A stretch of DNA of 64,000 nt from Kiloniellaceae bacterium (GTDB lineage Bacteria; Pseudomonadota; Alphaproteobacteria; Kiloniellales; J153). The translations under genes and the position numbers were made by a program. Shown piece after piece: positions 19,541 through 36,170 of the stretch. Every line of letters starts with the position of its first letter. Positions within the stretch are counted from its first letter, which is position 1. The stretch covers positions 3,967 through 67,966 of the forward strand of contig JAJFGL010000040.1 in assembly GCA_021776135.1 (NCBI GenBank). Direction: 5' to 3'. The notes under the pieces are model-generated. The model was given only the letters and a program-made list of their open reading frames with translations, was not told the origin of the DNA and ran no database searches.

Positions 19541-20152
19541 ATGGATAAGTTCACCACTTTACGCGGGGTTGCCGCGCCCTTGCCGATGGTCAATGTCGAT
19601 ACCGACAAGATCATCCCCAAGCAGTTCCTGAAAACCATTGCCCGCACCGGCCTGTCCAAGGGCCTGTTCTACGAGATGCGCTTCGACGAGGACGGTAAGC
19701 CGAAAGAGGGTTTCGTTCTCGACCAGCCGGCCTATAAAAACGCGCAAATACTGGTCGCGGGCGATAATTTCGGCTGCGGGTCGTCGCGCGAACACGCGCC
19801 CTGGGCGTTGTTGGACGCCGGTATCCGCTGCATCGTCTCCACCGGCTTCGCCGATATTTTTTATAACAACTGCTTCAAGAACGGCATCCTGCCCATCGTC
19901 TTGCCGAAGGCGCAGGTCGATATGCTCATGGACGACGCCGGGCGCGGCGCCAATGCGATTCTGTCCATCGATCTGAAAGATCAGGTCATTACCGGCCCGG
20001 ACGGCGGCACGATTAGTTTCGAGGTCGATCCCTTCCGCAAGCATTGCCTGCTCAACGGCCTGGACGATATCGGCCTGACCCTGGAAAAGGCCGATAAAAT
20101 CGACGATTACGAGGCCAAGCAAAATCATAGCCAGCCTTGGCTGGCGGGGTAA
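19541..20152 (+). CDS. leuD: 3-isopropylmalate dehydratase small subunit
   Basis: ORF track 19343-20152. Start moved to [14 protein letters not shown] (ATG 19541), with GGGAG 8-12 nt upstream. The upstream part of the track ORF is repeat DNA. Confidence 0.95.
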
Positions 20153-20157
20153 AGATC

Positions 20158-21270
20158 ATGGCCGCGAATAAAAAGCTACTGGTTCTGCCGGGCGACGGCA
20201 TCGGGCCCGAGGTCATGGGCGAGGTCTCGCGGGTGGTCGAGTGGTTCGGCGACCGCCGGGCGCTGAAGTTCGAGACCGAGGAAGGCCTGGTCGGCGGCGC
20301 CGCCATCGACGCCCAAGGCACGCCCCTCGCCGACGCCACCATGGCCAAGGCCATGGACGCCGACGCGGTGCTGCTGGGCGCCGTCGGCGGACCCAAGTGG
20401 GATAACCTGCCCTTTGAACAAAAGCCGGAACGCGGCCTTCTGCGCCTTCGTAAGGACATGGCTTTGTTCGCTAATTTGCGGCCCGCCATCTGCTTCGACG
20501 CGCTGGTCGAGGCGTCCTCGCTCAAGGCTGAAATTGTCGCCGGCCTGGATATCATGATCCTGCGCGAACTGACCGGCGGGGTTTATTTCGGCACCCCGCG
20601 GGGCATCGAAACCCTGGCCGACGGCACCAGGCGCGGGATTAATACCCAGGTTTATACGACCCCTGAAATTCACCGGGTCGCCCGGGTCGGCTTTGAGCTG
20701 GCGCGCAAGCGGAGCAATAAATTGTGCTCGGTCGAGAAGGCGAATGTCATGGAATCGGGCGTGCTCTGGCGCGAGGAAGTGCAAAAACTGCATGACGCCG
20801 AGTACGGGGATGTCGAGCTGACGCATATGTACGCCGATAACTGCGCCATGCAGCTGGTGCGCGCGCCCAAGCAGTTCGACGTCATCGTCACCGACAACTT
20901 GTTCGGCGACATGCTCTCGGACCAGGCCGCCATGTTGACCGGCTCCCTGGGCATGTTGCCCTCGGCCTCCCTCGGCGATCCCGACGAGACCGGACGGCGC
21001 AAAGCGCTGTACGAGCCGGTCCACGGCACCGCCCCCGACATCGCCGGCCAGGGCCAGGCCAACCCCATCGCCTGCGTGCTCAGCTTCGCCATGATGCTGC
21101 GCTATTCCCTCGATCTGGGCGGCGAGGCCGATCTGGTGGAAACCGCCGTGCGCAACGTCCTGGCCAGCGGCAAACGCACCGCCGATATTGCCGCCCCGGG
21201 CGAGGCCGCGCTCTCGACCGCCGAAATGGGCGCCGCCGTCCTGGCTGAGTTGGAGACCCTGGGGGCCTGA
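20158..21270 (+). CDS. leuB: 3-isopropylmalate dehydrogenase
   Basis: Start at [19 protein letters not shown] (ATG 20158). It has the isocitrate/isopropylmalate dehydrogenase motif [26 protein letters not shown]. Confidence 0.95.
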
Positions 21271-21290
21271 GCGGCCCACGAAAGCGTTAA

Positions 21291-21319
21291 TTGACGCTTT
21301 ACATTGGGTTGCGTATGAT
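21291..21319 (+). promoter_or_regulatory. Near-consensus sigma70-type promoter
   Basis: TTGACG (21291-21296), a 17-nt spacer, then TATGAT (21314-21319), about 40 nt upstream of the small ORF start. Confidence 0.45.
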
Positions 21320-21356
21320 TCGCACCTTGCTTCAACAACAGAAAGGAGGTGATCCG

Positions 21357-21548
21357 GTGTCTAAATCATTGGCTACGATCGCATTTGCGTTCGGAATTTT
21401 GGTCATTGCATCCGGATCGGCCCAGGCCGGTGGCGGTTGCGGTGGTATTTCGCACGAGGCGCAGAGCGCGTCCCTGGAGACCCTAACCGCCTCCACGGGC
21501 ACGCCTTCTCTGCCCCAGACTCCGAAACCCGAGACCAAGACGAATTGA
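21357..21548 (+). CDS. Small secreted protein (63 aa), unknown function
   Basis: GTG 21357 is preceded by AAAGGAGGTGAT with a 7-nt spacer. A signal-peptide-like N-terminus (SKSLATIAFAFGILVIASGSAQA) is followed by GGGCGGISHEAQSA...TPKPETKTN. A strong terminator follows. The track ORF (21291-21548) is the same frame. Confidence 0.55.
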   Translation: MSKSLATIAFAFGILVIASGSAQAGGGCGGISHEAQSASLETLTASTGTPSLPQTPKPETKTN

Positions 21549-21577
21549 CCTCGGGGGTGCTTTTGCGATAAGTCGGG

Positions 21578-21610
21578 AAGGCCGCCCTAGAACGGGCGGC
21601 CTTTTCTTTT
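21578..21610. terminator. Rho-independent terminator (possibly bidirectional)
   Basis: The stem aaggccgccc / gggcggcctt has the loop tagaac and is followed by ttttctttt. It lies between convergent genes ending at 21548 and 21617. Confidence 0.7.
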
Positions 21611-21616
21611 GTAACC

Positions 21617-21946
21617 TTACTCCAGACCGTGCCGGCGCATCTCGGCGCCAAGGCGGCCGCTCAGCCAGAGGGCGAACATACGAAAGTCACTGAACAGGGA
21701 CCAATACGGATGAGAGAAGCTGGCCGGGCGGTTGCGCTCGATAAAGCTGTGGCCGCCCCAGGCAAATCCATAGCCGGCGATAACCGCGGCGGTGATAAAA
21801 CGCAGATCCGCTAGAATTACAGTGCACGCCAGGAAAACGATAGCCAAGCCCGTGCCGAGGAAATGCAGGTGGCGATTACCCGGCTTGCGATGATCGGCCA
21901 GATAGTCCGGCCAGAATTCGTTGTAGGTTTTGGCGCGGCGGTCCAT
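21617..21946 (-). CDS. DUF962 (Mpo1-like) membrane protein
   Basis: ORF track 21617-22030. Start moved to MDRRAKTYNEFWPDYLADHRKPGNRHLHFLGT (ATG 21944-21946). The family assignment is from memory of the YGL010w-like pattern. Confidence 0.65.
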   Translation of the reverse strand: MDRRAKTYNEFWPDYLADHRKPGNRHLHFLGTGLAIVFLACTVILADLRFITAAVIAGYGFAWGGHSFIERNRPASFSHPYWSLFSDFRMFALWLSGRLGAEMRRHGLE

Positions 21947-22048
21947 GGCGCGGTTCCATACGTAGCGTCTAACTTGTAAAGCGGCCCAGGGTGCCTTACT
22001 TGGCAGTCCCTGCCCGTTACCAGACAACATAAAGGGTGAGTTACGACC

Positions 22049-23065
22049 ATGGGATACAAAATTGCCGTCGTCGGCGCGACCGGCGCCGTGGGGCGCGAAG
22101 TGCTGACCACCTTGGCGGAGCGCGAATTTCCGGTCGACGAACTGGTGCCCCTGGCCTCGGAACGCTCGGCGGGTCAGGAGATTTCCTTCGGCGAAGACGA
22201 GGTCCTCAAGGTCCGCGACCTGTCCGGCTTCGATTTCAAGGGCACCGATATCGTGCTGTCCTCCCCCGGCGCCAAGGTCTCAGCGGAGTTTAGCCCGATC
22301 GCCGCGCGCGCCGGCGCGGTGGTCATCGACAACACCTCCCACTTCCGCATGGACCCGGATATCCCCTTGGTGGTGCCCGAGGTCAACCCGGACGCCTTGG
22401 CCGGTTACGGGCGCCGCAACATCGTCGCCAACCCCAATTGTTCGACCATACAGATGGTTGTCGCGCTCAAGCCCCTGCACGACATCGCGCCCATCGCGCG
22501 GATCGTAGTCGCGACTTATCAATCGGTCTCGGGCGGCGGTAAGGACAAGATGGACGAGCTGTTCAATCAAACCCGCGGCGTCTATGTCAACGAGCCGGTT
22601 AGGCCGGAACACTTCACCAAGCAGATCGCCTTCAACGTGATTCCCCACATCGACGTCTTCATGGAAGACGGCACGACCAAGGAAGAATGGAAGATGGCGG
22701 CCGAGACCAAGAAGATCCTCGACCCCGCCATCAAGGTCGCCGCGACCTGCGTGCGGGTGCCGGTCTTCATCGGCCACGCCGAGGCGATCCATATCGAGTT
22801 CGATTCCCCCATCGACGAAGACGAGGCGCGCGAGGCCCTGCGCGCTGCCCCTGGCGTGATCCTGATCGACCACCGCCACGACGAAGGCTACGTCACCCCG
22901 ATCGAATGCGTGGGCGAGGATGCGGTCTTCGTCAGCCGCCTGCGTACGGACCCGAGCGTCGAACACGGCCTAAGTATGTGGGTCGTTTCCGACAACCTGC
23001 GTAAGGGCGCCGCCCTGAACGCCGTGCAAATCGCGGAAAAACTGGTCGAGGAATATTTGGGTTAG
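22049..23065 (+). CDS. asd: Aspartate-semialdehyde dehydrogenase
   Basis: 338 aa with MGYKIAVVGATGAVGREVL and the active-site context NPNCSTIQMV. Confidence 0.95.
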   Translation: MGYKIAVVGATGAVGREVLTTLAEREFPVDELVPLASERSAGQEISFGEDEVLKVRDLSGFDFKGTDIVLSSPGAKVSAEFSPIAARAGAVVIDNTSHFRMDPDIPLVVPEVNPDALAGYGRRNIVANPNCSTIQMVVALKPLHDIAPIARIVVATYQSVSGGGKDKMDELFNQTRGVYVNEPVRPEHFTKQIAFNVIPHIDVFMEDGTTKEEWKMAAETKKILDPAIKVAATCVRVPVFIGHAEAIHIEFDSPIDEDEAREALRAAPGVILIDHRHDEGYVTPIECVGEDAVFVSRLRTDPSVEHGLSMWVVSDNLRKGAALNAVQIAEKLVEEYLG

Positions 23066-23094
23066 GCACACGCTAAAATGAGACAGTTAGATCG

Positions 23095-23988
23095 TTAAAT
23101 CTGTCCGCTGAATAACCTCTGGTGAGATTGTATGAGGCCGGCAAGTTTTCGCGAAACTAGTTTTATCGGTTTGCTATGGCGGTCATCATCGTGGCTCACA
23201 AGCCACTGGTCATGGCCCAGTTCGGCTATGACACCGGATGCACGCTCCAAGCCGGATTCCGCATCGCCTATGAAGCAAGGTAGAACGCAAAACCCAAATC
23301 CCGATAAGGCTACCTCTATCACCGTCTGAGCGGTGGAGCATTTTATCTGTGCGCTACGATGCAAATGCCGGTCTAACCAAACCGCGGACGGCGTCTTGGG
23401 GCCGGGGGGTGAGAAGGCTATCCACGGGCTGGCTTCGAAACGCCGTGCACCTGTAGTTTCAGAGTGATTGGCAATCAACGACTTGCGTCCATAGACCGCG
23501 AATTCCACGCGAACCAGCCGTTTTCCAGCCAAGCCCGGTGTTTCCGGTTTTCGGTTGCGTAGCCCGATATTGGCTTCTCTGCGCAGCAAGGCAGCAGTAG
23601 CTGTACCGGTCAAAATTTCAAGGGACAAGTTTTCTGTAACATCAATCAAGCCCGGCAAATGGCCGGCTATAAAAATGCTCGTCCAAGCGCCAGCCGCGAT
23701 TTTAACTACCGGATGCGGATCGACGGCTGAGCGCCAACGTTCGATACCAAGTATTCCCTGCTCAACGGCTTCCGCGAGATCGAGCAGTTCTTTGCCTGCG
23801 CCGGTCAGACCATACCCATCCCGGCGGCGAATAAACAACGAGAGCCCCAGCGCGCACTCCAGCGATATCATGCGCCGGCTTAAGGTGGGCGCGCTTAGCT
23901 GAGTCGTGGGCACGGCGCCCGCCAGCCCTCCGTTCCGGGCGACCGCTAAATATAGGCGGAGGTCATCCCAATTAAGTGTTTCATCCAT
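23095..23988 (-). CDS. LysR-family transcriptional regulator
   Basis: 297 aa with the N-terminus LNWDDLRLYLAVARNGGLAGAVPTTQLSAPTLSRRMISLE. It is divergent from the EEP gene and sits in an AT-richer patch. Confidence 0.85.
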   Translation of the reverse strand: MDETLNWDDLRLYLAVARNGGLAGAVPTTQLSAPTLSRRMISLECALGLSLFIRRRDGYGLTGAGKELLDLAEAVEQGILGIERWRSAVDPHPVVKIAAGAWTSIFIAGHLPGLIDVTENLSLEILTGTATAALLRREANIGLRNRKPETPGLAGKRLVRVEFAVYGRKSLIANHSETTGARRFEASPWIAFSPPGPKTPSAVWLDRHLHRSAQIKCSTAQTVIEVALSGFGFCVLPCFIGDAESGLERASGVIAELGHDQWLVSHDDDRHSKPIKLVSRKLAGLIQSHQRLFSGQI

Positions 23989-24158
23989 GAAACGTGCATT
24001 TTGAAAATATAGGTTGGTATTTTGCCATATTCATCGATCATATATCAAAAGATCCGTTAAGCGTTACAAATTTGAAACTTACCAAACGCAAGAAGTCTCT
24101 GAAAGAAGCAAGAAAGTCCATGACACCTATGTAGTGTGACATAACCGGAAGGTAGCCT

Positions 24159-24983
24159 ATGACCGTTCGAAGTAAAGAAGACGACCTTATAGGAACGCGG
24201 TTGAGGATTTTGACATGGAATATTTGGTGGCGCTTCGGGCCTTGGCAGGAGCGCCGGCCGGCCATTACCGCGACCCTAAAAAAGCACGACGCGGACGTCA
24301 TTGCCCTTCAGGAGGTCTGGGGCGATGAGACAACCAACTTAGCGCGCGAACTTGCTGACGAAATGGGATACCATCATGTGTTTGCCCCGAGCATGGAGAT
24401 TAGTGGCCTTGGACTTGGCAACGCTCTGTTATCACGCTGGCCAATTAAGCAGCATGATTCAACTTCGCTGTACGGCAAGAAAGAAACGGGCGAGGGCCGG
24501 GTTGCGATCTTCGCAGAGATTGAGGGTCCTCATGGTTCGATCCCCGCTTTTTGTACGCATTTAAATTGGAAATTCGAGCACAGTCACATTCGCCAGCGTC
24601 AGGTGAGTGACCTCGCCCGTTTTGTCGACAGCAAGCGCCCGTGGAATTTTCCGCCCATAGTGTGCGGCGATTTCAATGCCGATCCTGCATCGGATGAAAT
24701 CCGCATGCTGAAGGGGCTGACAACCTGCCCTGTCGAGGGACTTAGCTTTCACGATGCGTGGAGTGTGGCTGGCGGTACCGGGCCCGGAGTCACATGGGAC
24801 AACGCCAATCCCTATGTGGCCGTTGAATTGGAACCCGATCGCCGGATCGACTACATTTTCGTAGGTTGGCCCCAGGACCGTGGGACCGGCCACATCGTGG
24901 ATTGCAAAGTCGTTGGCAATAAACCCCTGGACGATGTCTGGCCCAGCGATCACCATGGAGTCTTGGCCGAACTGCGTTATTGA
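24159..24983 (+). CDS. Endonuclease/exonuclease/phosphatase (EEP) family protein
   Basis: 274 aa with LRILTWNIWW, DVIALQEVW, CGDFNA and a C-terminal WPSDHHGVLAELRY, all typical of the EEP fold. Confidence 0.8.
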   Translation: MTVRSKEDDLIGTRLRILTWNIWWRFGPWQERRPAITATLKKHDADVIALQEVWGDETTNLARELADEMGYHHVFAPSMEISGLGLGNALLSRWPIKQHDSTSLYGKKETGEGRVAIFAEIEGPHGSIPAFCTHLNWKFEHSHIRQRQVSDLARFVDSKRPWNFPPIVCGDFNADPASDEIRMLKGLTTCPVEGLSFHDAWSVAGGTGPGVTWDNANPYVAVELEPDRRIDYIFVGWPQDRGTGHIVDCKVVGNKPLDDVWPSDHHGVLAELRY

Positions 24984-25002
24984 TTGAATTAAGAGAACGT
25001 CC

Positions 25003-25974
25003 ATGACTGCCGTTGACTCCATCGCCGCGCGTTCCATTCAGGCGCGCCAGAGGATCCGGAACTTTGTCTATGAGACGCCGCTGATCCCCGCCAAGCAGCT
25101 GGGCCGGGAGAGCGGCACGGACCTGTATTTCAAGGCCGAGAATTTTCAGCTTACCGGGTCTTTCAAAGCGCGCGGGGCGGCGAGCAAGACGACCGCCCTG
25201 GGGCCGGGACGAGACTTGATTACCGCGTCTTCCGGCAACCATGGCATCGCCTGCGCCCATGCGGCATCCAAACTCGGACAAAGACTGACGGTTGTCTTGC
25301 CCGAGACGGTATCGCCGGCCAAGCGCGCGCGGATCGGCGCCTACGGCGTTGAGATTATCCTGCACGGCGCCGAGCCGAATTTGGCCGAGCTGCACGCGCA
25401 ACGACTGGCGGCGGCCCGCGACGGTTTGGTTTACGTTTCGCCCTATAACGACGCAGATGTCATGGCCGGCCAAGGGACTATAGGCCTTGAGTTATTGGAG
25501 CAAGCCGAAGACATCGGCAATATTTTCATCGCCATGGGCGGTGGCGGCCTGATTAGCGGCGTCGGCGCGGTGCTCAAGCACGCCAATCCAAAAATCAAGG
25601 TCTTCGGCGTCGCGGCCGAGAACTCGGCGGCTCTGGCCGCCTCCCTGAAAGCCGGGCGGATTGTCGAGACCGAACATTTCGATACCCTGGCGGACGGAAT
25701 CGCCGGCGGCGTCGATAACGATAGCCTGACCCTGCCTCTCGCCACCGTGCTCGTCGATGAGGTCATTACATGCAGCGAGATGGAAATCGCCCAAGCCTTG
25801 CGGCGCATGGCGCTCGAGGAAAATCAAATTGTCGAGGGCGCCGCCGCCTTGGCCCTGGCCGGATTTTTGAAAGCGGCGGAGCGCCTGCGCGATCAAGTGA
25901 GCATCGTGCTTCTATGCGGCGCCAACTACGACACCGCCAAGATTCTTCCCATCCTTTGCGGTACTAAGAAATAA
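25003..25974 (+). CDS. PLP-dependent threonine/serine dehydratase family protein
   Basis: 323 aa with the PLP-Lys motif FQLTGSFKARGA, SSGNHG and a Gly-rich loop MGGGGLISG. Confidence 0.85.
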   Translation: MTAVDSIAARSIQARQRIRNFVYETPLIPAKQLGRESGTDLYFKAENFQLTGSFKARGAASKTTALGPGRDLITASSGNHGIACAHAASKLGQRLTVVLPETVSPAKRARIGAYGVEIILHGAEPNLAELHAQRLAAARDGLVYVSPYNDADVMAGQGTIGLELLEQAEDIGNIFIAMGGGGLISGVGAVLKHANPKIKVFGVAAENSAALAASLKAGRIVETEHFDTLADGIAGGVDNDSLTLPLATVLVDEVITCSEMEIAQALRRMALEENQIVEGAAALALAGFLKAAERLRDQVSIVLLCGANYDTAKILPILCGTKK

Positions 25975-26213
25975 TCTCGTTCTTGACCCGTGCGGCGGCG
26001 GCCTCTTCGGTGTCGTGCGGCGCGTTTTCCTTGGCTTTGATGGCCGCGATGGAATCGGGCGTGACCCCTAAAATACGGCAAAGCAAGACCAGAAACGCCG
26101 TCAGAAAATTCCTAAAAAGCACGGCCATGCCCCTCTATTACGTAGTGACGAATATCCATTGCGGGAAGTCTAGCACGGCTCAACCCCGCCACCAAAACGC
26201 TAAGCTCAGGTGC

Positions 26214-26660
26214 TTAAATCAACAAATTGTTCAGGGCGTTGAGCAACGCAAAAACGGTGACAACAGCACAGCTAATTAGAATTACTTTGTTGGTTTTCTT
26301 ATTTGCCTTCGGTTGTTGTTTTTCCTTGCCCGGTAATTTGTCCTGTAATTTCTTCTTTCGCGTCCGGCGAACTCTCTCTAGGTATTTTTTGGTCTCGAAA
26401 TCCTTGACTCTTTTTTCGCGTGACGCGGACCAAGTGTAAATTAGCTTCTGGTTGAAAACATTCTGTTCATCGTCGTAGGCTTCATTGACGACCCTTATCG
26501 CGGAAAAACGCCGTGCCTGTTCCAAGTGAAAAGCCGCGGAAAGCGCCGCCGCCTTGTTCTGGAAACTGTCGATCCATAGCCAGTTATCATTTTTATAGAC
26601 GTGCAATTCGAACACCGACATGGATCGCGGCCGCCCAGATTTTTTGTGAAAAACCTGCAT
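26214..26660 (-). CDS. Hypothetical tail-anchored small protein (148 aa)
   Basis: ATG 26660 lies 9 nt after the DUF2336 stop, and an AGGAG overlaps that stop. The protein has an N-terminal ~85-aa domain, a Lys/Arg-rich linker (RVRRTRKKKLQDKLPGKEKQQPKANKKTNK) and one C-terminal TM helix. It is markedly AT-rich. I recognise no family. Confidence 0.6.
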   Translation of the reverse strand: MQVFHKKSGRPRSMSVFELHVYKNDNWLWIDSFQNKAAALSAAFHLEQARRFSAIRVVNEAYDDEQNVFNQKLIYTWSASREKRVKDFETKKYLERVRRTRKKKLQDKLPGKEKQQPKANKKTNKVILISCAVVTVFALLNALNNLLI

Positions 26661-26669
26661 GCGCGTCTC

Positions 26670-27932
26670 CTAGTCCTCGCTCCAGCCCACCAGACCCTCG
26701 AAGAATTCCAGCTGCCAGACCATCTCGTCCTCGCCCAGGGGGTAGCCGGTGCCGGCGCGGGGGTGGAGGACCTGATTGGGGGCGATGCCGCCCATGCGCA
26801 GTTGCAGCTGAACCGCGAAGCGCATGGAAACCTCGGCCTTCCAGGCGAGCGCGGTCACACCTTTGGCGCTGTGGGCCGAAAAGATATGTTCGACCAGGAC
26901 ATGGGGCATGCCCGCGCGCAAGGCGAGGCCGTGGCGCAGGAAATCGCGCTCGCCGGAATTCAGCGCCCGGCTCAGGGCCGCTTCGTCCAGCTTGCCGCTT
27001 TTATGCAGGCTCTTGGCTTTCGCGGCCGGGTCTTCGGCGGTCTTGCTTTTGGTATCCTCGTCCTTGAGGCGGCGGCGCACCTCCTTGGCCACCGCCTTGG
27101 CGGTTTTGCGGTCCAGGTCCTGGCGCGCCTGCAAGAGGGACAATAACGACCCGGCGACGAAACTGGCGAGCTTACGAACCGCGCCCAGGGGCAGCTTGGG
27201 ACGCAAGACCAAGGGTTTTTGCCAGGCCGTTACTTGAATCGCCCCCTCGACCAGTCCGTCCAGGGCGTCCTCGCGAATCTGGGCGCTATCGTTTTCCAGC
27301 AAGGCGGCGACGGCGCCCTGATCCTGGGTGGCGACGATGGCGTCGGCGATGCTCTCGCCAACGCCGTAGCGCCGCGAGATGGCGCGCAGTTGGCCCGCGC
27401 CGGAGCCCGCCTCGATAATCTCGATCAGGTCGCGGTCGCTCAGCAGGGGCGAAAATTCGAGAACCGGGCACGCGACCACCTCTTCGATGTCGCGGGCCAG
27501 TCTTTGAATGACCGCCGGGGGAACCTCGGCCACGTCTTTCAGGGTTTCGGCGATGATCTGTCGGACCCTGATCGCCTGATCCTGGGCCAGTATCCCAATC
27601 ACCTCGATCAGAATTTCCTGCGCCTGTTCCTGGCCGCTGGCGTCGAGTTCAGGCATGAGGTTCGCGATCTTGGCGGCCAGTTTACGGCGCACCTCCTCGT
27701 CGCGGTCGCGGGCCAGAATCAGGTCGGCCTGACGCGGTGTTTTTCTATTGGCGGCGATCCAGCCCCGGACCTCGGCCGAATCGTCCTCGGCCATGAAGTA
27801 GAGAACCTCGGGGCGGATATCCTCGCGCCGGGCAATGCCCGCGCGCACCTGCGGGTTCCTATCCTTGGCCAGTCGTTTCGATTCTTCGTAGCTTATGGGC
27901 GCTTCGGCGCCGGCCCGGACAGCCTGGGTCAT
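26670..27932 (-). CDS. DUF2336 domain protein (helical-repeat-like)
   Basis: 420 aa. The motif VVACPVLEFSPLLSDRDLIEIIEAG matches my recollection of DUF2336. Repeated D..EVR motifs occur at the N-terminus. The start overlaps the cyclase stop (ATGA). Confidence 0.65.
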   Translation of the reverse strand: MTQAVRAGAEAPISYEESKRLAKDRNPQVRAGIARREDIRPEVLYFMAEDDSAEVRGWIAANRKTPRQADLILARDRDEEVRRKLAAKIANLMPELDASGQEQAQEILIEVIGILAQDQAIRVRQIIAETLKDVAEVPPAVIQRLARDIEEVVACPVLEFSPLLSDRDLIEIIEAGSGAGQLRAISRRYGVGESIADAIVATQDQGAVAALLENDSAQIREDALDGLVEGAIQVTAWQKPLVLRPKLPLGAVRKLASFVAGSLLSLLQARQDLDRKTAKAVAKEVRRRLKDEDTKSKTAEDPAAKAKSLHKSGKLDEAALSRALNSGERDFLRHGLALRAGMPHVLVEHIFSAHSAKGVTALAWKAEVSMRFAVQLQLRMGGIAPNQVLHPRAGTGYPLGEDEMVWQLEFFEGLVGWSED

Positions 27933-29629
27933 GGCGTGTCCTCCACCGCCGCCGGGATCGACACCGCGACCGCCCCCTTACCCCGGCGCTTGACGCCGTA
28001 CATGGCCTGGTCGGCCCGCTCGACCGCCTCGGCCACGGATTCGGCGCCATCGGAGGTGCAAAAAGCGGCCCCGATCGAAAAGCCCAAGGGATGGCCGCTA
28101 TCGCCGGACAGATCCCGCAACACCGCCGCCGCTTGGCAAATTTCCCTGCCCTTGCTTTCGGCCGCCTCGGCGCCGATGTCCTCGACGAAAACCGCGAATT
28201 CGTCGCCGCCAAGGCGCGCCACCAGGTCGCGCCCACGGGTGCAGTCACGCAGTATCCGCGCGACCTCGCTCAGGGCCCGGTCGCCGCGTTTATGCCCATG
28301 GCGGTCGTTGACCGCCTTGAAATTATCCAAGTCGATAAAAAACAAGGCCGCGCCCCCGCGCCACGCCGCACGGCGGGAAAAACGCCGCTCCAGCTCCGCC
28401 AGAAAGCTGCGCCGGTTATGCAGGCCGGTCAGGGAATCCGTGGAGGATAGTTCTTCCAGTTCCTCCTGATGGGCCACTTGCCGGTTGGTAAGGCCGATTT
28501 GACCGGCGATCTCAGACAGGAGCGCGCGGTCCTCGCGGCTCCAAGGCTCCTCGCCGGGCGCCCGCCAAAGGCACAAGGCCCCGTTCCATGCTCGATCGAA
28601 ATGGGTCGCGCAGCCGAACAGAAATCCGCCGCCGGTTTCGATCGCGGCTTGGCTTTCGCCATCCCGCAGGCGCGCGATCAAGGCCTGCATCGGGTCCTCG
28701 CCGGGCATGTCGCCGTATTGGGCGGCGCGGATAATTTCGCCGCCGCGATCCAAGCGATAGACCGCCGCCCCCGCCGCCGGCAGCGCCGGCACGACCGCTC
28801 CGCAGGCCGCCGAGAGAACCCGCGCCGGCTCCATCTCCTCGCGCAGTATGCCAAGGATATGGGCCAGTAGGCGTTCCCGGTTCCGGTCGAGTGCCAGGCG
28901 CGTTTCATGGCGGCGTTCGGCGGTGATGTCGCGGCACAAACCGCGGGCGCCACGCCAAGCGCCTTCGCCATCGAACAACGGTAGCGCGGTCGCGAGCAAG
29001 CAGGCGGACTCGCCCGCGCGGTCCTTGATCCAAACTTCCATATCGCGCAAGGGCGCGCGTGCGGCGAAGGGCGAGTCCCCGCCCTGCATGACGCTATCGT
29101 CCAGGACCCCGGCCGCCGCACCGACCAGTTCGGCCGCGCTGTAGCCCAAGGCGCCCACTGAGGAGATAAAGGTGAAGCATCCGTGCGCGTCGGTCTCCCA
29201 GACGAAATCGCTGGCCGCCTCTACCAGATCCTTATAACGCTGCCGGGATTCGATCAGGGCCGCGCGTAAGGATCGCTCCAGGGTGATGTCGCGGGCCAGG
29301 ACCAGCACCTCCGCGCCCTCGCCCCAAGGCAGTATGGCGGCATCGAAGGCCAGCTCCGCCGCGCCCGCGCCCGGCGTGAGCATCAACGGATTGATTTGCC
29401 CGGGGCGGCCCTGAAGGGCGCCGGTGACCGCCTCGCGCAGGGCCGCGCCCGCCTCGGCGCGCAGCAGGGCGGCGATGGCCTCGCCGGCCGGGTTCGCATC
29501 GAGAATCGCGCCCTTCGGACCGGCGAGAAGGGCGGCGCCGGGAAAGCGGCTTAGCTCCGTTTCCATGCGGTTCGGCCCAGCCAACCCAAGCCCTCTTCCA
29601 TGGTCCCGCACGGCAGGCGATTGTCCCAT
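27929..29629 (-). CDS. PAS/GAF-containing diguanylate cyclase (GGDEF)
   Basis: 566 aa with a C-terminal LTGLHNRRSF...DLDNFKAVNDRHGH..GD...RLGGDEFAV. An RGRD I-site-like motif lies 5 residues before GGDEF. Upstream are PAS-like (DFVWETDAHGCFTFIS) and GAF-like regions. Confidence 0.9.
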   Translation of the reverse strand: MGQSPAVRDHGRGLGLAGPNRMETELSRFPGAALLAGPKGAILDANPAGEAIAALLRAEAGAALREAVTGALQGRPGQINPLMLTPGAGAAELAFDAAILPWGEGAEVLVLARDITLERSLRAALIESRQRYKDLVEAASDFVWETDAHGCFTFISSVGALGYSAAELVGAAAGVLDDSVMQGGDSPFAARAPLRDMEVWIKDRAGESACLLATALPLFDGEGAWRGARGLCRDITAERRHETRLALDRNRERLLAHILGILREEMEPARVLSAACGAVVPALPAAGAAVYRLDRGGEIIRAAQYGDMPGEDPMQALIARLRDGESQAAIETGGGFLFGCATHFDRAWNGALCLWRAPGEEPWSREDRALLSEIAGQIGLTNRQVAHQEELEELSSTDSLTGLHNRRSFLAELERRFSRRAAWRGGAALFFIDLDNFKAVNDRHGHKRGDRALSEVARILRDCTRGRDLVARLGGDEFAVFVEDIGAEAAESKGREICQAAAVLRDLSGDSGHPLGFSIGAAFCTSDGAESVAEAVERADQAMYGVKRRGKGAVAVSIPAAVEDTP

Positions 29630-29822
29630 TTACATTTCCTGACAGTCTGGTCTTCCCGGCGTCGGGATAGAATGCCTAGTTTGGCCTTAAGGGTGGCTTA
29701 AATCGTTATTTATCAGTCTCTTAAACCTTGGCATCCTGACCGAATTCGCGCCGGCGGGCGTTGACAGGCCGGGCCGTCCGGCGCATCTTCGCCAGGCATG
29801 AACCAGCGCGAGGAACACCCCC

Positions 29823-30677
29823 ATGACCGCCGCCCCTAGCGAGGCCCTCCAAGCCACAGTCGAGGCCGCTTGGGAGGCCCGCGACAGCATCACCCCAGCC
29901 ACCAAGGGCGAAATCCGCGAGGCCGTGGAAGCCGCCTTCGAGGGCCTGGACGCGGGCACCTTCCGGGTCGCGGAGAAAACCGCCCAGGGCTGGAAGATCA
30001 ATCAGTGGTTGAAACAGGCGGTGCTGCTGTCCTTCCGCCTGAACGACATGACCAGCATCCCCGGCGGGCCCGGCGATGGGACCACATGGTGGGACAAGGT
30101 GCCTAGCAAGTTCGCCGGCTGGGGCGAAAACCGTTTCCGCGACGCAGGCTTCCGCGCCGTGCCCAACTGCGTCGTGCGCCGCTCCGCCTATATCGCGCCG
30201 GGGGTGGTCTTGATGCCGAGCTTCGTCAATGTCGGCGCCTATGTGGATAGCGGCACCATGGTCGATACCTGGGTGACCATCGGCTCCTGCGCCCAGGTCG
30301 GGAAGAACTGCCATATCTCCGGCGGCGCCGGCATCGCCGGGGTGCTGGAGCCCCTGCAGGCCAATCCGGTCATCATTGAGGACAACTGCTTTATCGGCGC
30401 CCGGGCCGAGGTCGCGGAAGGGGTCATCGTCGAGACCGGATCGGTCCTGTCCATGGGCGTTTATATCGGCGCCTCCACTAGAATCGTCGACCGCGCCACG
30501 GGCGAAATCCATTTCGGCCGGGTGCCCGCGTACTCCGTGGTGGTATCGGGAACCATGCCGGGCAAGCCCTTTCCCGACGGCAGCCCAGGACCGGGCCTTT
30601 ACTGCGCCGTCATCGTCAAGAGGGTGGACGAAAAGACCCGCTCCAAAACCTCCATCAACGAACTGCTGCGCACCTGA
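29823..30677 (+). CDS. dapD: Tetrahydrodipicolinate N-succinyltransferase
   Basis: 284 aa with a hexapeptide-repeat region, a DapD-like N-terminus, and a position adjacent to dapE. Confidence 0.93.
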
Positions 30678-30682
30678 CCCCC

Positions 30683-31858
30683 ATGTCCCCGCCAACTAAT
30701 CTCGATCCGGTCGAGCTGACCCGCGCCCTGATCCGCTGTCCCAGCATCACGCCAAGGGAAGGCGGCGCGCTCGATCTGCTGGAAGGGGTCTTGCGCGATC
30801 TCGGCTTTAATTGTCAGCGGCTGAAGTATTCGCAGGACGGGACGCCCGATGTGGAGAACCTCTATGCCCGCCTGGGCGAAACCGGGCGCAACTTCTGCTA
30901 TGCCGGCCACACCGACGTAGTGCCGCCGGGCGATCCCGCCAGCTGGCGCGCCGATCCCTTCGCCGCCGAAATCCAGGACAACGTGCTGATCGGGCGCGGC
31001 GCGGTCGACATGAAGGGATCGATCGGCGCCTTCGTGGCCGCCCTGGCCGGATTCCTCAAGGCGCGCGGGGGGGCCTTCGGCGGCTCCATCAGCCTGCTGA
31101 TAACCGGCGACGAGGAAGGCCCGGCCATCAACGGCACCCGCAAGGTACTGGACTGGCTGCGCGAGCGGGGTGAGCGCCTGGACGCCTGCCTGGTTGGGGA
31201 GCCGACCAGCGACAAGCGCCTGGGCGACACCATCAAGATCGGCCGGCGCGGCAGCGTTAGCGGACACCTGGCCGTTCACGGCACCCAAGGTCACGTTGCC
31301 TATCCGCAACTGGCCGACAACCCGATCCACCGTCTGGTGCGTATGCTGGACGCGGTGACGCGAGAACCCCTGGACCAGGGCAGCGATCACTTCCCGCCCA
31401 GCGGTTTGCAAGTCACCAGCATCGATGTCGGCAATGCCACCGGCAATTTGATCCCGGCCAAGGCCCAGGCCAAGTTCAACGTGCGCTTCAACGACCGCCA
31501 CAGCGGCGGCAGCGTTATCGCCTGGCTGCGCGAGCGCTTCGACCGCGAAATCGAGCCCGGCCAGAACGCGCGCTACGACCTGGAAACCCGGATTAGCGGC
31601 GAGTCCTTCCTGTGCCCGCCGGGGCCCTTGAGCGCCCTGGCCGCCGCGGCCGTGGAAAGCATCACCGGCGCGGCGCCGGTCCTGGGCACCACCGGCGGCA
31701 CCTCCGACGCCCGCTTCATCAAGGACCACTGCCCGATTGTCGAACTGGGCCTCTTGAACGCGACCGCGCACCAGGTAGACGAACGGGTATCCCTGCAAGA
31801 CCTGCGCGGCTTGTGCGCCATTTACGGGGCCGTTCTCGACGGCTATTTCGCGCCTTGA
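30683..31858 (+). CDS. dapE: Succinyl-diaminopimelate desuccinylase
   Basis: 391 aa of the M20 family with LIRCPSITP, YAGHTDVVP and ITGDEEG. Confidence 0.93.
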   Translation: MSPPTNLDPVELTRALIRCPSITPREGGALDLLEGVLRDLGFNCQRLKYSQDGTPDVENLYARLGETGRNFCYAGHTDVVPPGDPASWRADPFAAEIQDNVLIGRGAVDMKGSIGAFVAALAGFLKARGGAFGGSISLLITGDEEGPAINGTRKVLDWLRERGERLDACLVGEPTSDKRLGDTIKIGRRGSVSGHLAVHGTQGHVAYPQLADNPIHRLVRMLDAVTREPLDQGSDHFPPSGLQVTSIDVGNATGNLIPAKAQAKFNVRFNDRHSGGSVIAWLRERFDREIEPGQNARYDLETRISGESFLCPPGPLSALAAAAVESITGAAPVLGTTGGTSDARFIKDHCPIVELGLLNATAHQVDERVSLQDLRGLCAIYGAVLDGYFAP

Positions 31859-31935
31859 CCCCGGCGCCAAGCTTTCGCGAAATCGTCTTCGGGCTTTACG
31901 GGGCCTGGCGCCTGGCGCTCCTCGACCGGGGCGGC

Positions 31936-32430
31936 ATGTCTTATTTCGACGACAGCGCCGAGGGCTTCTGGAAATCCTTTTACGCCGCCGCCCTGGTCGC
32001 GCCCGGCTATGTCATCCTGATCCTGCTCGACCCCGCCGAAGACGCCGGCGCCGGAGTCTTACGAAGCCTCGCGATCCACACCCTGGTCTACAGCCTTTCC
32101 TGGACCGTCTATCCGGTGATCGTGGTTCCGATTCTCGAATCCATGGGCCGGGAGAGTGCCTACATCCGCTTCATCGTCGCCTTCAATTGGGCCAAGGTGG
32201 TGCAGATGGCGCTATATCTGCCGGTTATCGTCATCGTCGCGGCCGAGGTTCTGCCCAGCGGCGCCACCAACCTCTTGAGCGGCGCCATGTACATCTTGTT
32301 GCTCGTCTACCAATGGGTCGTCACCCGCACCGCCCTGGACATAACACCCAAGGCCGCCGCCGGCCTGGTCGCTCTCGACTTCGCGGTCGGCGTGGTCCTA
32401 AGCGTGCTGGCGGCAAGCATGTTGCAATAG
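31936..32430 (+). CDS. Hypothetical integral membrane protein
   Basis: This is the same frame as track ORF 31612-32430, whose upstream part overlaps dapE. About 5 TM helices follow MSYFDDSAEGFWKSF. A TTG at 31855 overlapping the dapE stop is an alternative start. Confidence 0.55.
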   Translation: MSYFDDSAEGFWKSFYAAALVAPGYVILILLDPAEDAGAGVLRSLAIHTLVYSLSWTVYPVIVVPILESMGRESAYIRFIVAFNWAKVVQMALYLPVIVIVAAEVLPSGATNLLSGAMYILLLVYQWVVTRTALDITPKAAAGLVALDFAVGVVLSVLAASMLQ

Positions 32431-32517
32431 CATGGGTTAGGTTTAATCTAAAAGCGCTCAAGTCGGCAGGCAGTGAGTTAAATCGGTGTGTGCCACGATG
32501 ATCCTCAATCGCTACGC

Positions 32518-34122
32518 ATGGAGGGTGTTGTGGAAAGCAGAGCCAAGAGACGTCAGCCCCGGCGGCGGGGCAACCCCATCGAAGCCCGAATCAAAACCCG
32601 GCCTAATGCCTTTCATTTAGACCCGGGTACGGGCGCGAGCGGGGGCACGGGCGGGCGCGCGCATTTCGGATTTCTGGACGAAGCTGCGATCGAAAAACTT
32701 AAAGCCCGCGCCTTCGATCTGCTTGAAAACTACGGCGTCGTTTTCATTCATCCCCTGGCCACCGAGGCCCTGAAAAAAGCCGGAGCCACGCCGGGCAGCG
32801 GCGCCGACCGCCTGCGCCTACCGCGCCAAATGGTCGCCGAAGCCCTGGCGGCGACCCCGAAACAGGTCACGCTCCATGGCAAGAAACCCGCCCTCGATCT
32901 TCACCTGCCGCGCGGCGACGGCGGCTTCGTCATGCGGACAGGCACCGGCGCCCATGGCTACGTCGATCCCGAGACCGGGGTTTACCGCAACCTCGACCTC
33001 AAGGCCGTGGCCGAAATCGCCGCCGTGGCCAACGATCTAAACGAGGTTGGCTTTATCGCCCATCCCTTCGTCGCTGGGGTGCCGGAGATCACCGCCGACA
33101 TCCACGGCTTCGCCAAGCTGATCGCGCGCACGGAAAAACACGTCTGGATGCAACCCTACGCCAAGGAAAACGTCGAATACATGATTCGCCTGGCGGCCAT
33201 CGCAGCGGGCGGCGAGGCGGAACTGCGCAAGCGCCCCTTGGCGAGCATCATCACCTGTTCCTTCTCGCCCCTGGAATTCAAGTACATGGATACGGAGGTG
33301 ATTATCCAGGCCGGGCGCCTCGGCCTGCCGATCCATGCCTGCAGCCTGCCCTCCGCCGGCGGCACCGCGCCGCTATCGACCTCGGGCATGGTGCTCATGG
33401 CGGCGGCGGAAATACTGGCCATGACCACCGCCGCCCATGTGCTGGCGCCGGGCACGCCGGTCATCGCCACGCCGCTGATGTTCACCCTCGACATGCGAAC
33501 CGGCAGCGCCCTGCAATCCTGCGTCGAGTCCCTGCAAGCCGCGAACATGGCCATACAGGTTATGAAGCAGGGCTTCGGCATGATCGCCCATACCTACGGC
33601 TCCGGCTCCGACACCCCGGACGTGGAGGTGCAATCCATGGCCGAGCGCACGCTCATCACCCAGACCGTGGCCCTGTCGGGCGCCGATATCCTGGGCGGCG
33701 TCGGGCAGTTGGAGTGCGCCACCGTTTTCAGCCCGGTGCAGGCGGTGCTGGATGACGAGGTCGGGGCCATGATGCGGCAATTCATCCGCATGCCCGAAGT
33801 TAGCGACGAAAGCCTGAACTGGAACGAGGTATCGGCCATCAGAACCGGCGGCCATTTCCTCGACAGCACCCACACCCTGAACAAGTGCCGCGAGCAGTTT
33901 AGCCAAAGAGCCTTCCTGCGCCAGAACCGCGACGATTACGAGGCGGCGGAGCGCCGCGCCGCCTTCGAGCAAGCCCGCGACATGGCCCTAGCCTCGATCC
34001 GCAAGGCCGCGCCGGAAGGAATCTTGAGCGAAGACGCCAACAAGGAAATCGCCGAGCTAGTCGCCGCCGCCGACCGCCATATACTCGGTGAAGCGAATAA
34101 AGGCGCGGCGGCGGTTATTTGA
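32518..34122 (+). CDS. MttB-superfamily (trimethylamine methyltransferase-like) protein, non-pyrrolysine type
   Basis: ORF track 32488-34122 has no internal stop. An Arg-rich N-terminus (RAKRRQPRRRGN) and family-like blocks (GSGSDTPDVEVQSMAE, ADILGGVGQLE, GGHFLDSTHT) are present. The start is ambiguous: GTG 32488, ATG 32518, or GTG 32530 with GGAGGG upstream. Confidence 0.75.
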   Translation: MEGVVESRAKRRQPRRRGNPIEARIKTRPNAFHLDPGTGASGGTGGRAHFGFLDEAAIEKLKARAFDLLENYGVVFIHPLATEALKKAGATPGSGADRLRLPRQMVAEALAATPKQVTLHGKKPALDLHLPRGDGGFVMRTGTGAHGYVDPETGVYRNLDLKAVAEIAAVANDLNEVGFIAHPFVAGVPEITADIHGFAKLIARTEKHVWMQPYAKENVEYMIRLAAIAAGGEAELRKRPLASIITCSFSPLEFKYMDTEVIIQAGRLGLPIHACSLPSAGGTAPLSTSGMVLMAAAEILAMTTAAHVLAPGTPVIATPLMFTLDMRTGSALQSCVESLQAANMAIQVMKQGFGMIAHTYGSGSDTPDVEVQSMAERTLITQTVALSGADILGGVGQLECATVFSPVQAVLDDEVGAMMRQFIRMPEVSDESLNWNEVSAIRTGGHFLDSTHTLNKCREQFSQRAFLRQNRDDYEAAERRAAFEQARDMALASIRKAAPEGILSEDANKEIAELVAAADRHILGEANKGAAAVI

Positions 34123-34155
34123 TGGGGCGGCTTGGCCTGTTACCGAAAAACGATT

Positions 34156-34228
34156 TTCACCACGAAGGCACGAAGACACTAAGAAGAAATTCCTTCGCTT
34201 CTTTGTGTCTTCGTGCCTTCGTGGTGAA
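34156..34228. repeat. Palindromic repeat (ttcaccacgaaggcacgaagacac... family), copy B; likely also a terminator for the upstream gene
   Basis: ttcaccacgaaggcacgaagacactaagaag / cttctttgtgtcttcgtgccttcgtggtgaa form near-perfect ~30-bp arms. A T-run (34230-34238) follows. Confidence 0.8.
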
Positions 34229-34288
34229 TCCTTTTTTTGCCAGCCACCCAAACGACGCTAGACCAGTTAAACGCAAGGATCGCCGGTC

Positions 34289-34576
34289 ATGCTGAATGAA
34301 ATGTCCGAAGGTTTGGTAAGATACAGCACGTCGCCGACATTCACCCAGGACAGCGTGCCCGTCGCCTTGCGGAAGAATCACAAAACCAAAGCCGGGGTGT
34401 GGGCCAAGGCCGTCGTGACCCAAGGCTCGATCGATTATATTCTTGAAGAAACGCCGGAAGATTATCTAACCGTCAAGGCTGGCAACTTCGCTCTCATCGA
34501 ACCGGAAGTGCCGCACCATGTGCGCGTAACCGGCAAGGTGACGTTCCACCTTGAATTCTACCGGCGCGCCGAATGA
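34289..34576 (+). CDS. DUF1971 (YeaR/TehB-N-like) small protein
   Basis: 95 aa. The pattern HKTKAGVWAKAVVTQGSIDY...HHV...FHLEFYR matches my recollection of DUF1971. Confidence 0.65.
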   Translation: MLNEMSEGLVRYSTSPTFTQDSVPVALRKNHKTKAGVWAKAVVTQGSIDYILEETPEDYLTVKAGNFALIEPEVPHHVRVTGKVTFHLEFYRRAE

Positions 34577-34597
34577 GATATAGGGAGCCGCGCTTTC

Positions 34598-35299
34598 CTA
34601 TGAAAGCAGCCAGCCGCCGTCAACGTCGATGGTGGTGCCGGTGACGAAATCGTTTTGGATCATGAAGAGAATGGCCTGAGCCACCTCCTCGGCGGTACCG
34701 GCGCGGGGGATGACGTTGCCGCTGGTCATTTTTTCGTACAAGGCCGTGCGCGCCTCGCCTTCCGCCGCGACCATGGGGGTATCGATGGTCCCCGGCGACA
34801 CGACGTTCAAGCGCCGCGGCGCGATTTCCGGCGCCACGGCACGGACCAAGGCCTCGACCGCGCCGCCAACCGATGACAAGGCCACCTGCCCCGGCTTGCA
34901 TTTGCGCGCCGGGGCGCCGCTGACCAGCACGATCGACCCATTCCGGCTCATATGTTCGGCGCCAAGGCGCACGACATTCGCATAGCCCCAAAGCTTGTCG
35001 AAGGAAGCCTTGTAGCCATCCATATCCATCTCGAGGAAGGCGCCAAGGGACCGGGAGCCGCCAGTCGCCGCGCTGACCAAAATGTCGAAAGGCGCGCTTT
35101 CCTGAAACAACCGCGACAAGGCGGCGCGATCCAGGACGTCGCATTTCTTGAGGCTGACGCCGGGGATTTCGCCGGCTCTGCCCGGGTCGCGGCTGACCGC
35201 GGTGACCTCGGCGCCCAAGGCCGCGAGCTGTTTCGTGGCGGCAAGGCCAATGCCCGAGGTGCCGCCGATAACGATCGCTTTCTTGCCTGCTACATCCAT
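34598..35299 (-). CDS. SDR-family oxidoreductase
   Basis: ORF track 34598-35386. Start moved to MDVAGKKAIVIGGTSGIGLA (ATG 35299), which carries the Rossmann TGxxxGIG motif. Confidence 0.85.
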   Translation of the reverse strand: MDVAGKKAIVIGGTSGIGLAATKQLAALGAEVTAVSRDPGRAGEIPGVSLKKCDVLDRAALSRLFQESAPFDILVSAATGGSRSLGAFLEMDMDGYKASFDKLWGYANVVRLGAEHMSRNGSIVLVSGAPARKCKPGQVALSSVGGAVEALVRAVAPEIAPRRLNVVSPGTIDTPMVAAEGEARTALYEKMTSGNVIPRAGTAEEVAQAILFMIQNDFVTGTTIDVDGGWLLS

Positions 35300-35432
35300 G
35301 ATTTTAATCCGGCCTTCCCTATGTGAGCCTTCGAACTGGCATGAATGGTAACCGAACCGGCCGGAGCGGGAAACCGCGAAGCGCATGGCGGCCCGTTTCG
35401 AGCCGGTTCCAATCGCTTTACAGCCCCCGCCT

Positions 35433-36170
35433 TCAGTACTCCACGCCCAAGAAATACAGCCCCTCCGGCGGAGCGGTTGGACCGGCGGCGGCTCGGTCGC
35501 GCGCCGCCAGGGCGGCCGCCAAATCCTCGCGGGTCCACTTGCCCTCCCCCACCAGTTTCAGGGTGCCGGCAAGGATACGGACCTGATTATGCAGGAAGGA
35601 GCGGGCGCGCACGTCGATGGAAATAACCTCGCCCTGGCGCGTGACATCCAGGGCGTCGAGGGTTTTCACCGCGCTCTTGGCCTGGCACTCGCTGGCGCGG
35701 AAGCTGGTGAAATCATGGTGGCCGATAAGAACTTGCGCGGCCTCGTGCATGGCGGCGGCGTCCAGGGGCTGGGGCACAAACCAGGCCCGGCCCTTCTCCA
35801 GCGTCAGGGGCGCGCGCCGATTGACCATGCGGTAACGATAGGCCCGCCCCAAGGCCGAAAAGCGGGCGTGAAAATCGGGCGCCGCAGCTTGCGCCGAGAG
35901 CACGGCGACGGCGGCGGGACGCAGGTGGGCATTGAGGGCGTCGCGCAGGGTATCGGCGTTCACGTCCTTCGCCAGGTCGAAGCTGGCCACCTGACCCAGG
36001 GCATGAACCCCGGCGTCGGTGCGCCCGGCGGCGTGGACGGTCACCGCCTCCCCGCAAAATCCCTGGATGGCAGCTTCGAGCGCGGCCTGGACGCTGGGCC
36101 CGTTATCCTGGCGCTGCCAGCCGACGAAACCGGCGCCGTCGTATTCGAGCCTGAGCTTATAGCGGGTCAC
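35433..36170 (-). CDS. truA: tRNA pseudouridine(38-40) synthase
   Basis: 245 aa with [21 protein letters not shown] and the catalytic context [10 protein letters not shown]. Confidence 0.93.

Follow-up and report, generated by a model that had tools for sequence, protein, structure and literature searches.

Some diguanylate cyclases come with dedicated accessory proteins, as in the YfiBNR and SiaABCD systems, where control is exerted by direct binding or modification. A locus resembling these in having a cyclase gene in an operon with a partner gene is analyzed here, in a stretch of 64,000 nucleotides (hereafter the window, contig JAJFGL010000040.1) of a metagenome-assembled Kiloniellaceae genome of 3.96 Mb. 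The first gene of the operon (positions 27929-29629, minus strand, 566 residues) codes for a PAS-PAS-(GAF)-GGDEF diguanylate cyclase, and the second (26670-27932, minus strand, 420 residues) for a protein of the DUF2336, or SpbR, family. Control of the cyclase by its partner would extend the likeness to YfiBNR and SiaABCD. The partner differs from the accessory proteins of these systems, to which it is unrelated, in being, by prediction, a cytoplasmic solenoid of the HEAT/ARM type. In the reading that we consider the probable one, with some reserve, the two genes are an operon for a CtrA-timed sensor cyclase and a dedicated protein-binding DUF2336 adaptor. The cyclase family and the DUF2336 family are both already known; what would be new is their combination, in which a helical-repeat protein serves as the cyclase's own adaptor and the promoter is of the CtrA type. 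Among the papers searched, those that mention DUF2336 or the Caulobacter SpbR contain no description of a pairing between a cyclase and DUF2336.

SpbR (CC2323) of Caulobacter is the characterized member of the DUF2336 family. It is a cargo of the adaptor RcdA, to which it binds 1:1, and a substrate of ClpXP. A stabilized variant, SpbRDD, has been described, which implies that SpbR carries a ClpXP tail of the Ala-Ala type, and SpbR has been lost together with regulators of cyclic di-GMP (c-di-GMP) in non-dimorphic Caulobacterales. An earlier reading of the window (the original prediction) had taken DUF2336 to be without assigned function, which is thus outdated. It had also proposed a coupled operon of three genes, with a small tail-anchored protein encoded after DUF2336 and all three products in one membrane-bound complex. 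The three open reading frames do lie on the same strand at the coordinates given then, and the stop codon of the cyclase gene indeed overlaps the start codon of the DUF2336 gene in an ATGA at 27929-27932 (minus strand), an arrangement typical of translational coupling. As detailed below, the coupled pair is conserved among relatives; the third gene lies outside the conserved unit.

Within the GGDEF family, the cyclase is unremarkable. Its GGDEF domain scores 135.1 bits in Pfam (PF00990, cut-off 23.8) and 132.1 bits in NCBIfam (TIGR00254, cut-off 37.4), and its profile matches solved cyclases such as PleD and WspR. The predicted succession of PAS, GAF, and GGDEF domains holds for the PAS part (PAS and PAS_4 are both above the Pfam cut-offs) and for GGDEF, but the GAF domain remains below threshold (16-18 bits for cut-offs of 22-29), with some added support from weak matches to GAF/PHY structures in the PDB. 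Residues 465-478 read RGRD-LVARL-GGDEF, with the GGDEF motif at residue 474, so that both the intact active site and the RxxD I-site five residues before it are present as announced; the two motifs are invariant in about 30 orthologs of the cyclase. The protein is a soluble, active-looking diguanylate cyclase with both active site and I-site intact. It shares the GGDEF domain, the active-site motif, and the RxxD I-site with PleD, WspR, and DgcB. Unlike cyclases of that type, it has a PAS-PAS-(GAF) input instead of a receiver domain and an obligate co-translated helical-repeat partner.

Co-occurrence of the two genes is systematic among relatives. All 28 relatives in which the DUF2336 ortholog was found, from five families of the order, have a full-length homolog of the cyclase encoded immediately before it. 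A wider scan, with one genome per GTDB species, gave at least 574 relatives, of which the best 80 were examined; among these, the cyclase is upstream in all 79 loci with enough upstream DNA, and in three of them DUF2336 is duplicated in tandem behind it. Altogether, about 107 related loci have sufficient upstream sequence, and the two genes are neighbors in each of them. The pair is found, among others, in Pelagibius litoralis, Denitrobaculum tricleocarpae, Thalassospira xianhensis, Dongia mobilis, and Telmatospirillum. Ancestrally, it is as a rule flanked by the divergent dapE-dapD and the convergent argB. The overlap between stop and start codons, either of -4 (NTGA) or of -1 (TGATG/TAATG), is found in 30 of 30 loci (the 28 relatives, the closest relative L006, and the window) and in most of the further loci of the GTDB and distant sets; it persists as protein identity falls from 92% to about 30%. 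Evolutionary distances of the cyclase and of DUF2336 are correlated in a mirror-tree analysis (r = 0.90), also when controlling for dapD (partial r = 0.81, permutation p = 0.001). With respect to L006, the ratio of nonsynonymous to synonymous substitution rates (dN/dS) is 0.18 for the cyclase gene and 0.07 for the DUF2336 gene. Among 301 evenly drawn alphaproteobacterial genomes, about 105 (roughly a third) code for a full-length ortholog of the DUF2336 protein, and in 24 of the 39 distant orthologs with enough flanking sequence the cyclase is upstream. In conclusion, the cyclase and DUF2336 genes are an old, conserved, and translationally coupled two-gene module present in many alphaproteobacteria.

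Some loci depart from the simple arrangement. In L222 (1962-2669), DUF2336 is preceded only by the N-terminal 235 residues of the cyclase, that is, by its PAS part, and GAF-GGDEF has been lost. The tandem arrangement, with two copies of DUF2336 behind the cyclase, is that of L065, L072, and L083 and is a lineage-specific duplication of the partner. Long open frames had suggested fusions of the cyclase with DUF2336, but these were discarded: the reading frames of the two genes differ, and open frames of such length are common in GC-rich DNA. In six distant loci (L192, L194, L196, L199, L200, and L201), the gene directly upstream of the DUF2336 ortholog is not the cyclase but zapE, coding for a cell division ATPase, several of these with a 4-nucleotide stop/start overlap. 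Other distant orthologs adjoin a HAD nucleotidase or dapD.

The DUF2336 protein of the window belongs to PF10098 with 174.6 bits (gathering score 34.6), and Pfam adds a weak HEAT match. The AlphaFold2 model (mean predicted local distance difference test score, pLDDT, of 84.6) has 25 helices arranged in a solenoid, and its top Foldseek matches are designed armadillo repeats, the PR65 subunit of PP2A, and beta-catenin, with probability 1.00 for the armadillo and PR65 structures and template modeling (TM) scores of 0.3-0.4. Sequence profiles reach only the HEAT repeats of PR65 and a leucine-rich-repeat-variant protein. The helical-repeat character attributed to DUF2336 in the original prediction is therefore borne out by the weak HEAT match and the predicted solenoid, and the protein is best described as a predicted all-helical, HEAT/ARM-like solenoid of the SpbR family. 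The best structural matches, the PP2A scaffold PR65/A and the armadillo scaffolds, are proteins that hold an enzyme together with its regulators; the resemblance is at fold level only (TM scores of 0.3-0.4, 14%-18% identity) and does not imply common descent. A scaffold role, one of the two functions suggested earlier for DUF2336, fits such a predicted fold. As to the other, that of a c-di-GMP effector, searches of Pfam and NCBIfam gave neither the DUF2336 protein nor the small one any of the known receptor domains for c-di-GMP (PilZ, MshEN, degenerate GGDEF/EAL, and others).

The window protein shares with SpbR the Pfam domain, a similar size, the all-helical character, and the restriction to alphaproteobacteria. 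It differs from SpbR by an extra N-terminal repeat region and by the lack of a C-terminal Ala-Ala: it ends in -GWSED, and its orthologs in -LAG, -LSA, or -DAE. With the NCBIfam model of SpbR (NF052659), it scores 172 bits, below the equivalog cut-off of 400 bits, and is thus not an SpbR equivalog. The genome has five DUF2336 genes, of which two are tandem SpbR equivalogs with scores of 454 and 452 bits and with -VAA and -IAA as their C-terminal residues. These true SpbR copies are about 30% identical to the window protein and, unlike its orthogroup, are not encoded behind a cyclase. A third paralog (310 bits, ending in -DAA) is divergent from the gene of a CpdR-like receiver (C26). The fourth (168 bits, 384 residues; C67:5285-7899, L115) has a 4-nucleotide overlap with a downstream gene coding for a PAS-HisKA-HATPase kinase, the core of which matches best PdhS/DivJ. 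A Hpt-receiver protein is encoded near this DUF2336/kinase pair.

The association of DUF2336 with kinases is found in other genomes as well. Among the 61 downstream neighbors of DUF2336 paralogs in 60 loci of relatives, 24 are PAS-HisKA-HATPase kinases, many with overlapping genes, and GGDEF and EAL proteins are absent; the genes upstream are heterogeneous and give no signal. Since the paralogs neighbor kinases and a receiver, and no GGDEF or EAL protein, the linkage to GGDEF is specific to the orthogroup of the window protein. The linkage between DUF2336 and GGDEF genes that had been proposed for survey thus exists in this orthogroup, but not in PF10098 as a whole. The family as such is repeatedly co-translated with signaling or division enzymes. 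One may extend this into a general scheme, which we put forward tentatively and regard as possible but short of an even chance: DUF2336/SpbR proteins would be a general class of alphaproteobacterial adaptors of the CtrA regulon, each subfamily gating one enzyme (the cyclase, a DivJ/PdhS-like kinase, a CpdR-like receiver, or ZapE) in space or time, and the pair described here would be what links the synthesis of c-di-GMP with the cell cycle in bacteria other than Caulobacter.

The connection with CtrA comes from the promoter region. The spacer between the cyclase gene and the divergent dapD contains a CtrA-type box, TTAAGGGTGGCTTAA, of the form TTAA-N7-TTAA (29687-29701, with no strand assigned), 58-72 nucleotides upstream of the cyclase ATG. 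Perfect sites of this form are rare in the genome (37 in all, or 0.0035 per 380 bp), and every one is intergenic. Four of the 37 precede units containing DUF2336, namely, this operon (window 29687), both SpbR equivalogs, and the divergent receiver/DUF2336 pair, the last three being represented by C4:62130, C4:63456, and C26:49183; the fifth DUF2336 unit has only a site with one mismatch. A perfect box is present in 57 of 94 non-redundant orthologous promoters, at -40 to -280 and mostly at about -70 to -130, and it is also kept where dapD is not the neighbor. In alignments the box is invariant and the surrounding spacer has diverged. No perfect box occurs in 11 control loci, which are the PAS_5/small-gene pairs described below. 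The genome codes for a CtrA ortholog that is 70% identical to the CtrA of Caulobacter. The operon thus has a conserved box where a CtrA-dependent promoter would have it, and CtrA apparently switches it on.

The third gene (26214-26660, minus strand, 148 residues in its longest open reading frame) has a different history. As predicted, its product matches no family of Pfam or NCBIfam and has a single C-terminal hydrophobic helix (residues 126-144, mean Kyte-Doolittle value 2.27). A word-based search gave a single homolog and an exhaustive search was needed for the rest, which led to a family of 49 clusters with a shared architecture. All 48 other representatives begin at Met14 of the window frame; the true start is therefore probably the ATG at 26621, giving 135 residues and leaving 48 nucleotides after the DUF2336 stop. 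The originally proposed start, an ATG 9 nucleotides past the DUF2336 TAG with an AGGAG across the stop, does exist, but with a start further in, the tight coupling claimed for the third gene is doubtful. The AlphaFold2 model (pLDDT 91.9) has a ββ-α-ββ N-terminal domain, a long basic helix, and a transmembrane helix, and finds no fold match in the PDB (best E 0.47). Comparison with the homolog of L006, which has the same three-gene layout, gives a dN/dS of 0.35 and an in-frame indel of 12 nucleotides, a pattern of substitution expected from a genuine, fast-evolving gene.

The original prediction had staked its three-gene unit on the presence of the 148-residue frame in syntenic relatives. Searches with tblastn at the syntenic loci find it in the close relative L006 only; it is missing from all others, including three genomes of the same genus, which on the terms of that prediction refutes the third gene as a member of the unit. 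With a profile of the protein family, the small protein is found in 23 of 61 relatives, in each case at a great distance from the cyclase pair, and in none of the 13 other genomes of the source organism's own family. Its gene has a GC content of 0.45 (0.56 at third codon positions, GC3), and the two upstream genes have 0.65-0.68. The small gene is thus a low-GC passenger that the window species and one close relative have acquired recently, behind the last gene of the operon, and not a part of the ancestral module. In 10 of 10 loci (among L180-L190), the gene directly upstream of the one for the small protein codes for a stand-alone PAS_5 protein (PF07310) of 150-177 residues; in the source genome, PAS_5 has only a distant homolog, encoded elsewhere. 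The PAS_5 and small-protein genes look like an undescribed two-gene unit, in which a soluble PAS protein would have a partner anchored in the membrane.

The small gene is part of a patch of lower GC content (0.44-0.60) at 23095-26660, between asd and the DUF2336 gene, which also contains genes for a LysR regulator, an EEP-fold hydrolase, and a pyridoxal phosphate-dependent (PLP) dehydratase. In most relatives, DUF2336 is followed not by this patch but by the convergent argB. Downstream of the small gene, a reading frame of 52-54 codons (25964-26128, minus strand) is conserved in L006, where it is called as a gene, and may code for a real small hydrophobic protein. Rfam gives no RNA family within 20000-36000. 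Terminator predictions between or after the three genes are not convincing, their counts being no higher than in shuffled sequence.

Several observations weigh against a CtrA-timed cyclase with its own adaptor. The other 33 perfect boxes adjoin mixed genes (motA, maf, bactofilin, mreC, lpxC, and others), with no clear enrichment and no clean regulon signature, the spacer holding the box is common to the divergent dapD in many genomes, and the binding of CtrA is putative, as read from a consensus. Part of the mirror-tree signal could reflect the shared local history of adjacent genes. Lastly, 15 of the 39 distant DUF2336 orthologs have no adjacent cyclase, so that the partner can have a cyclase-independent role. 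If the two genes simply belonged to one CtrA-type regulon and were adjacent for reasons of expression, with no contact between their products, one would expect the conserved box, the operon structure, and the lineages where DUF2336 is kept alone. This explanation is nevertheless unlikely, given that the stop/start overlap withstands divergence to about 30% identity, that the pair co-evolves beyond what is seen with the neighbor dapD, and that the predicted fold is of the protein-binding scaffold type. The same distant orthologs without a cyclase also speak against DUF2336 being a receptor that binds the product of the adjacent cyclase and relays the signal. Conserved coupling to an active-looking cyclase would suit a receptor, as would the joint loss of SpbR and c-di-GMP regulators in Caulobacterales. 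Yet no known c-di-GMP-binding domain or motif family is detected, Pfam giving only DUF2336 and the weak HEAT match, and in the sister subfamilies the coupling is with kinases, a receiver, and ZapE, not with enzymes of c-di-GMP. The effector function of the original prediction is thus unsupported, and we regard it as distinctly unlikely.

SpbR provides the precedent for another explanation, in which DUF2336 would be a ClpXP/RcdA cargo that ties the cyclase to degradation timed by the cell cycle. The Ala-Ala endings of the two SpbR equivalogs and of the third paralog are as expected from such cargoes, but the tails of the window protein (-WSED) and of its orthologs are not, and the score of the protein is far from the SpbR equivalog cut-off; a cargo role is very improbable for this orthogroup. 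A membrane-anchored complex of all three proteins, held by the small one, would agree with the common strand, the spacing of 9-48 nucleotides, and the lack of terminator-like sites between the genes. Moreover, the family of the small protein normally follows a PAS gene, and the cyclase has PAS domains. Against this complex stand the absence of the small gene from the remaining syntenic loci and from all 13 further genomes of the bacterial family, its foreign composition, and its lack of linkage to the pair wherever else it is found, which leave the complex unsupported and make it extremely improbable. Each of these explanations is less well supported than that of a CtrA-timed cyclase with a dedicated adaptor.

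If the adaptor reading is right, CtrA would turn the pair on at a particular point in the cell cycle or in the motile phase. The DUF2336 protein would bind the cyclase at about 1:1, probably through the PAS-containing N-terminal half of the enzyme, and would control its activity, place, timing, or stability, with local and timed c-di-GMP synthesis as the outcome. The link between c-di-GMP and the CtrA cell-cycle circuit is poorly known in alphaproteobacteria outside Caulobacter, and the sole studied relative of the partner, SpbR, affects pole development and chromosome segregation. Cultured carriers of the pair exist in Thalassospira, Pelagibius, Dongia, and Denitrobaculum. An adaptor of this kind, if real, would provide the widespread DUF2336 domain with a function, and diguanylate cyclases with a protein partner of a new type.

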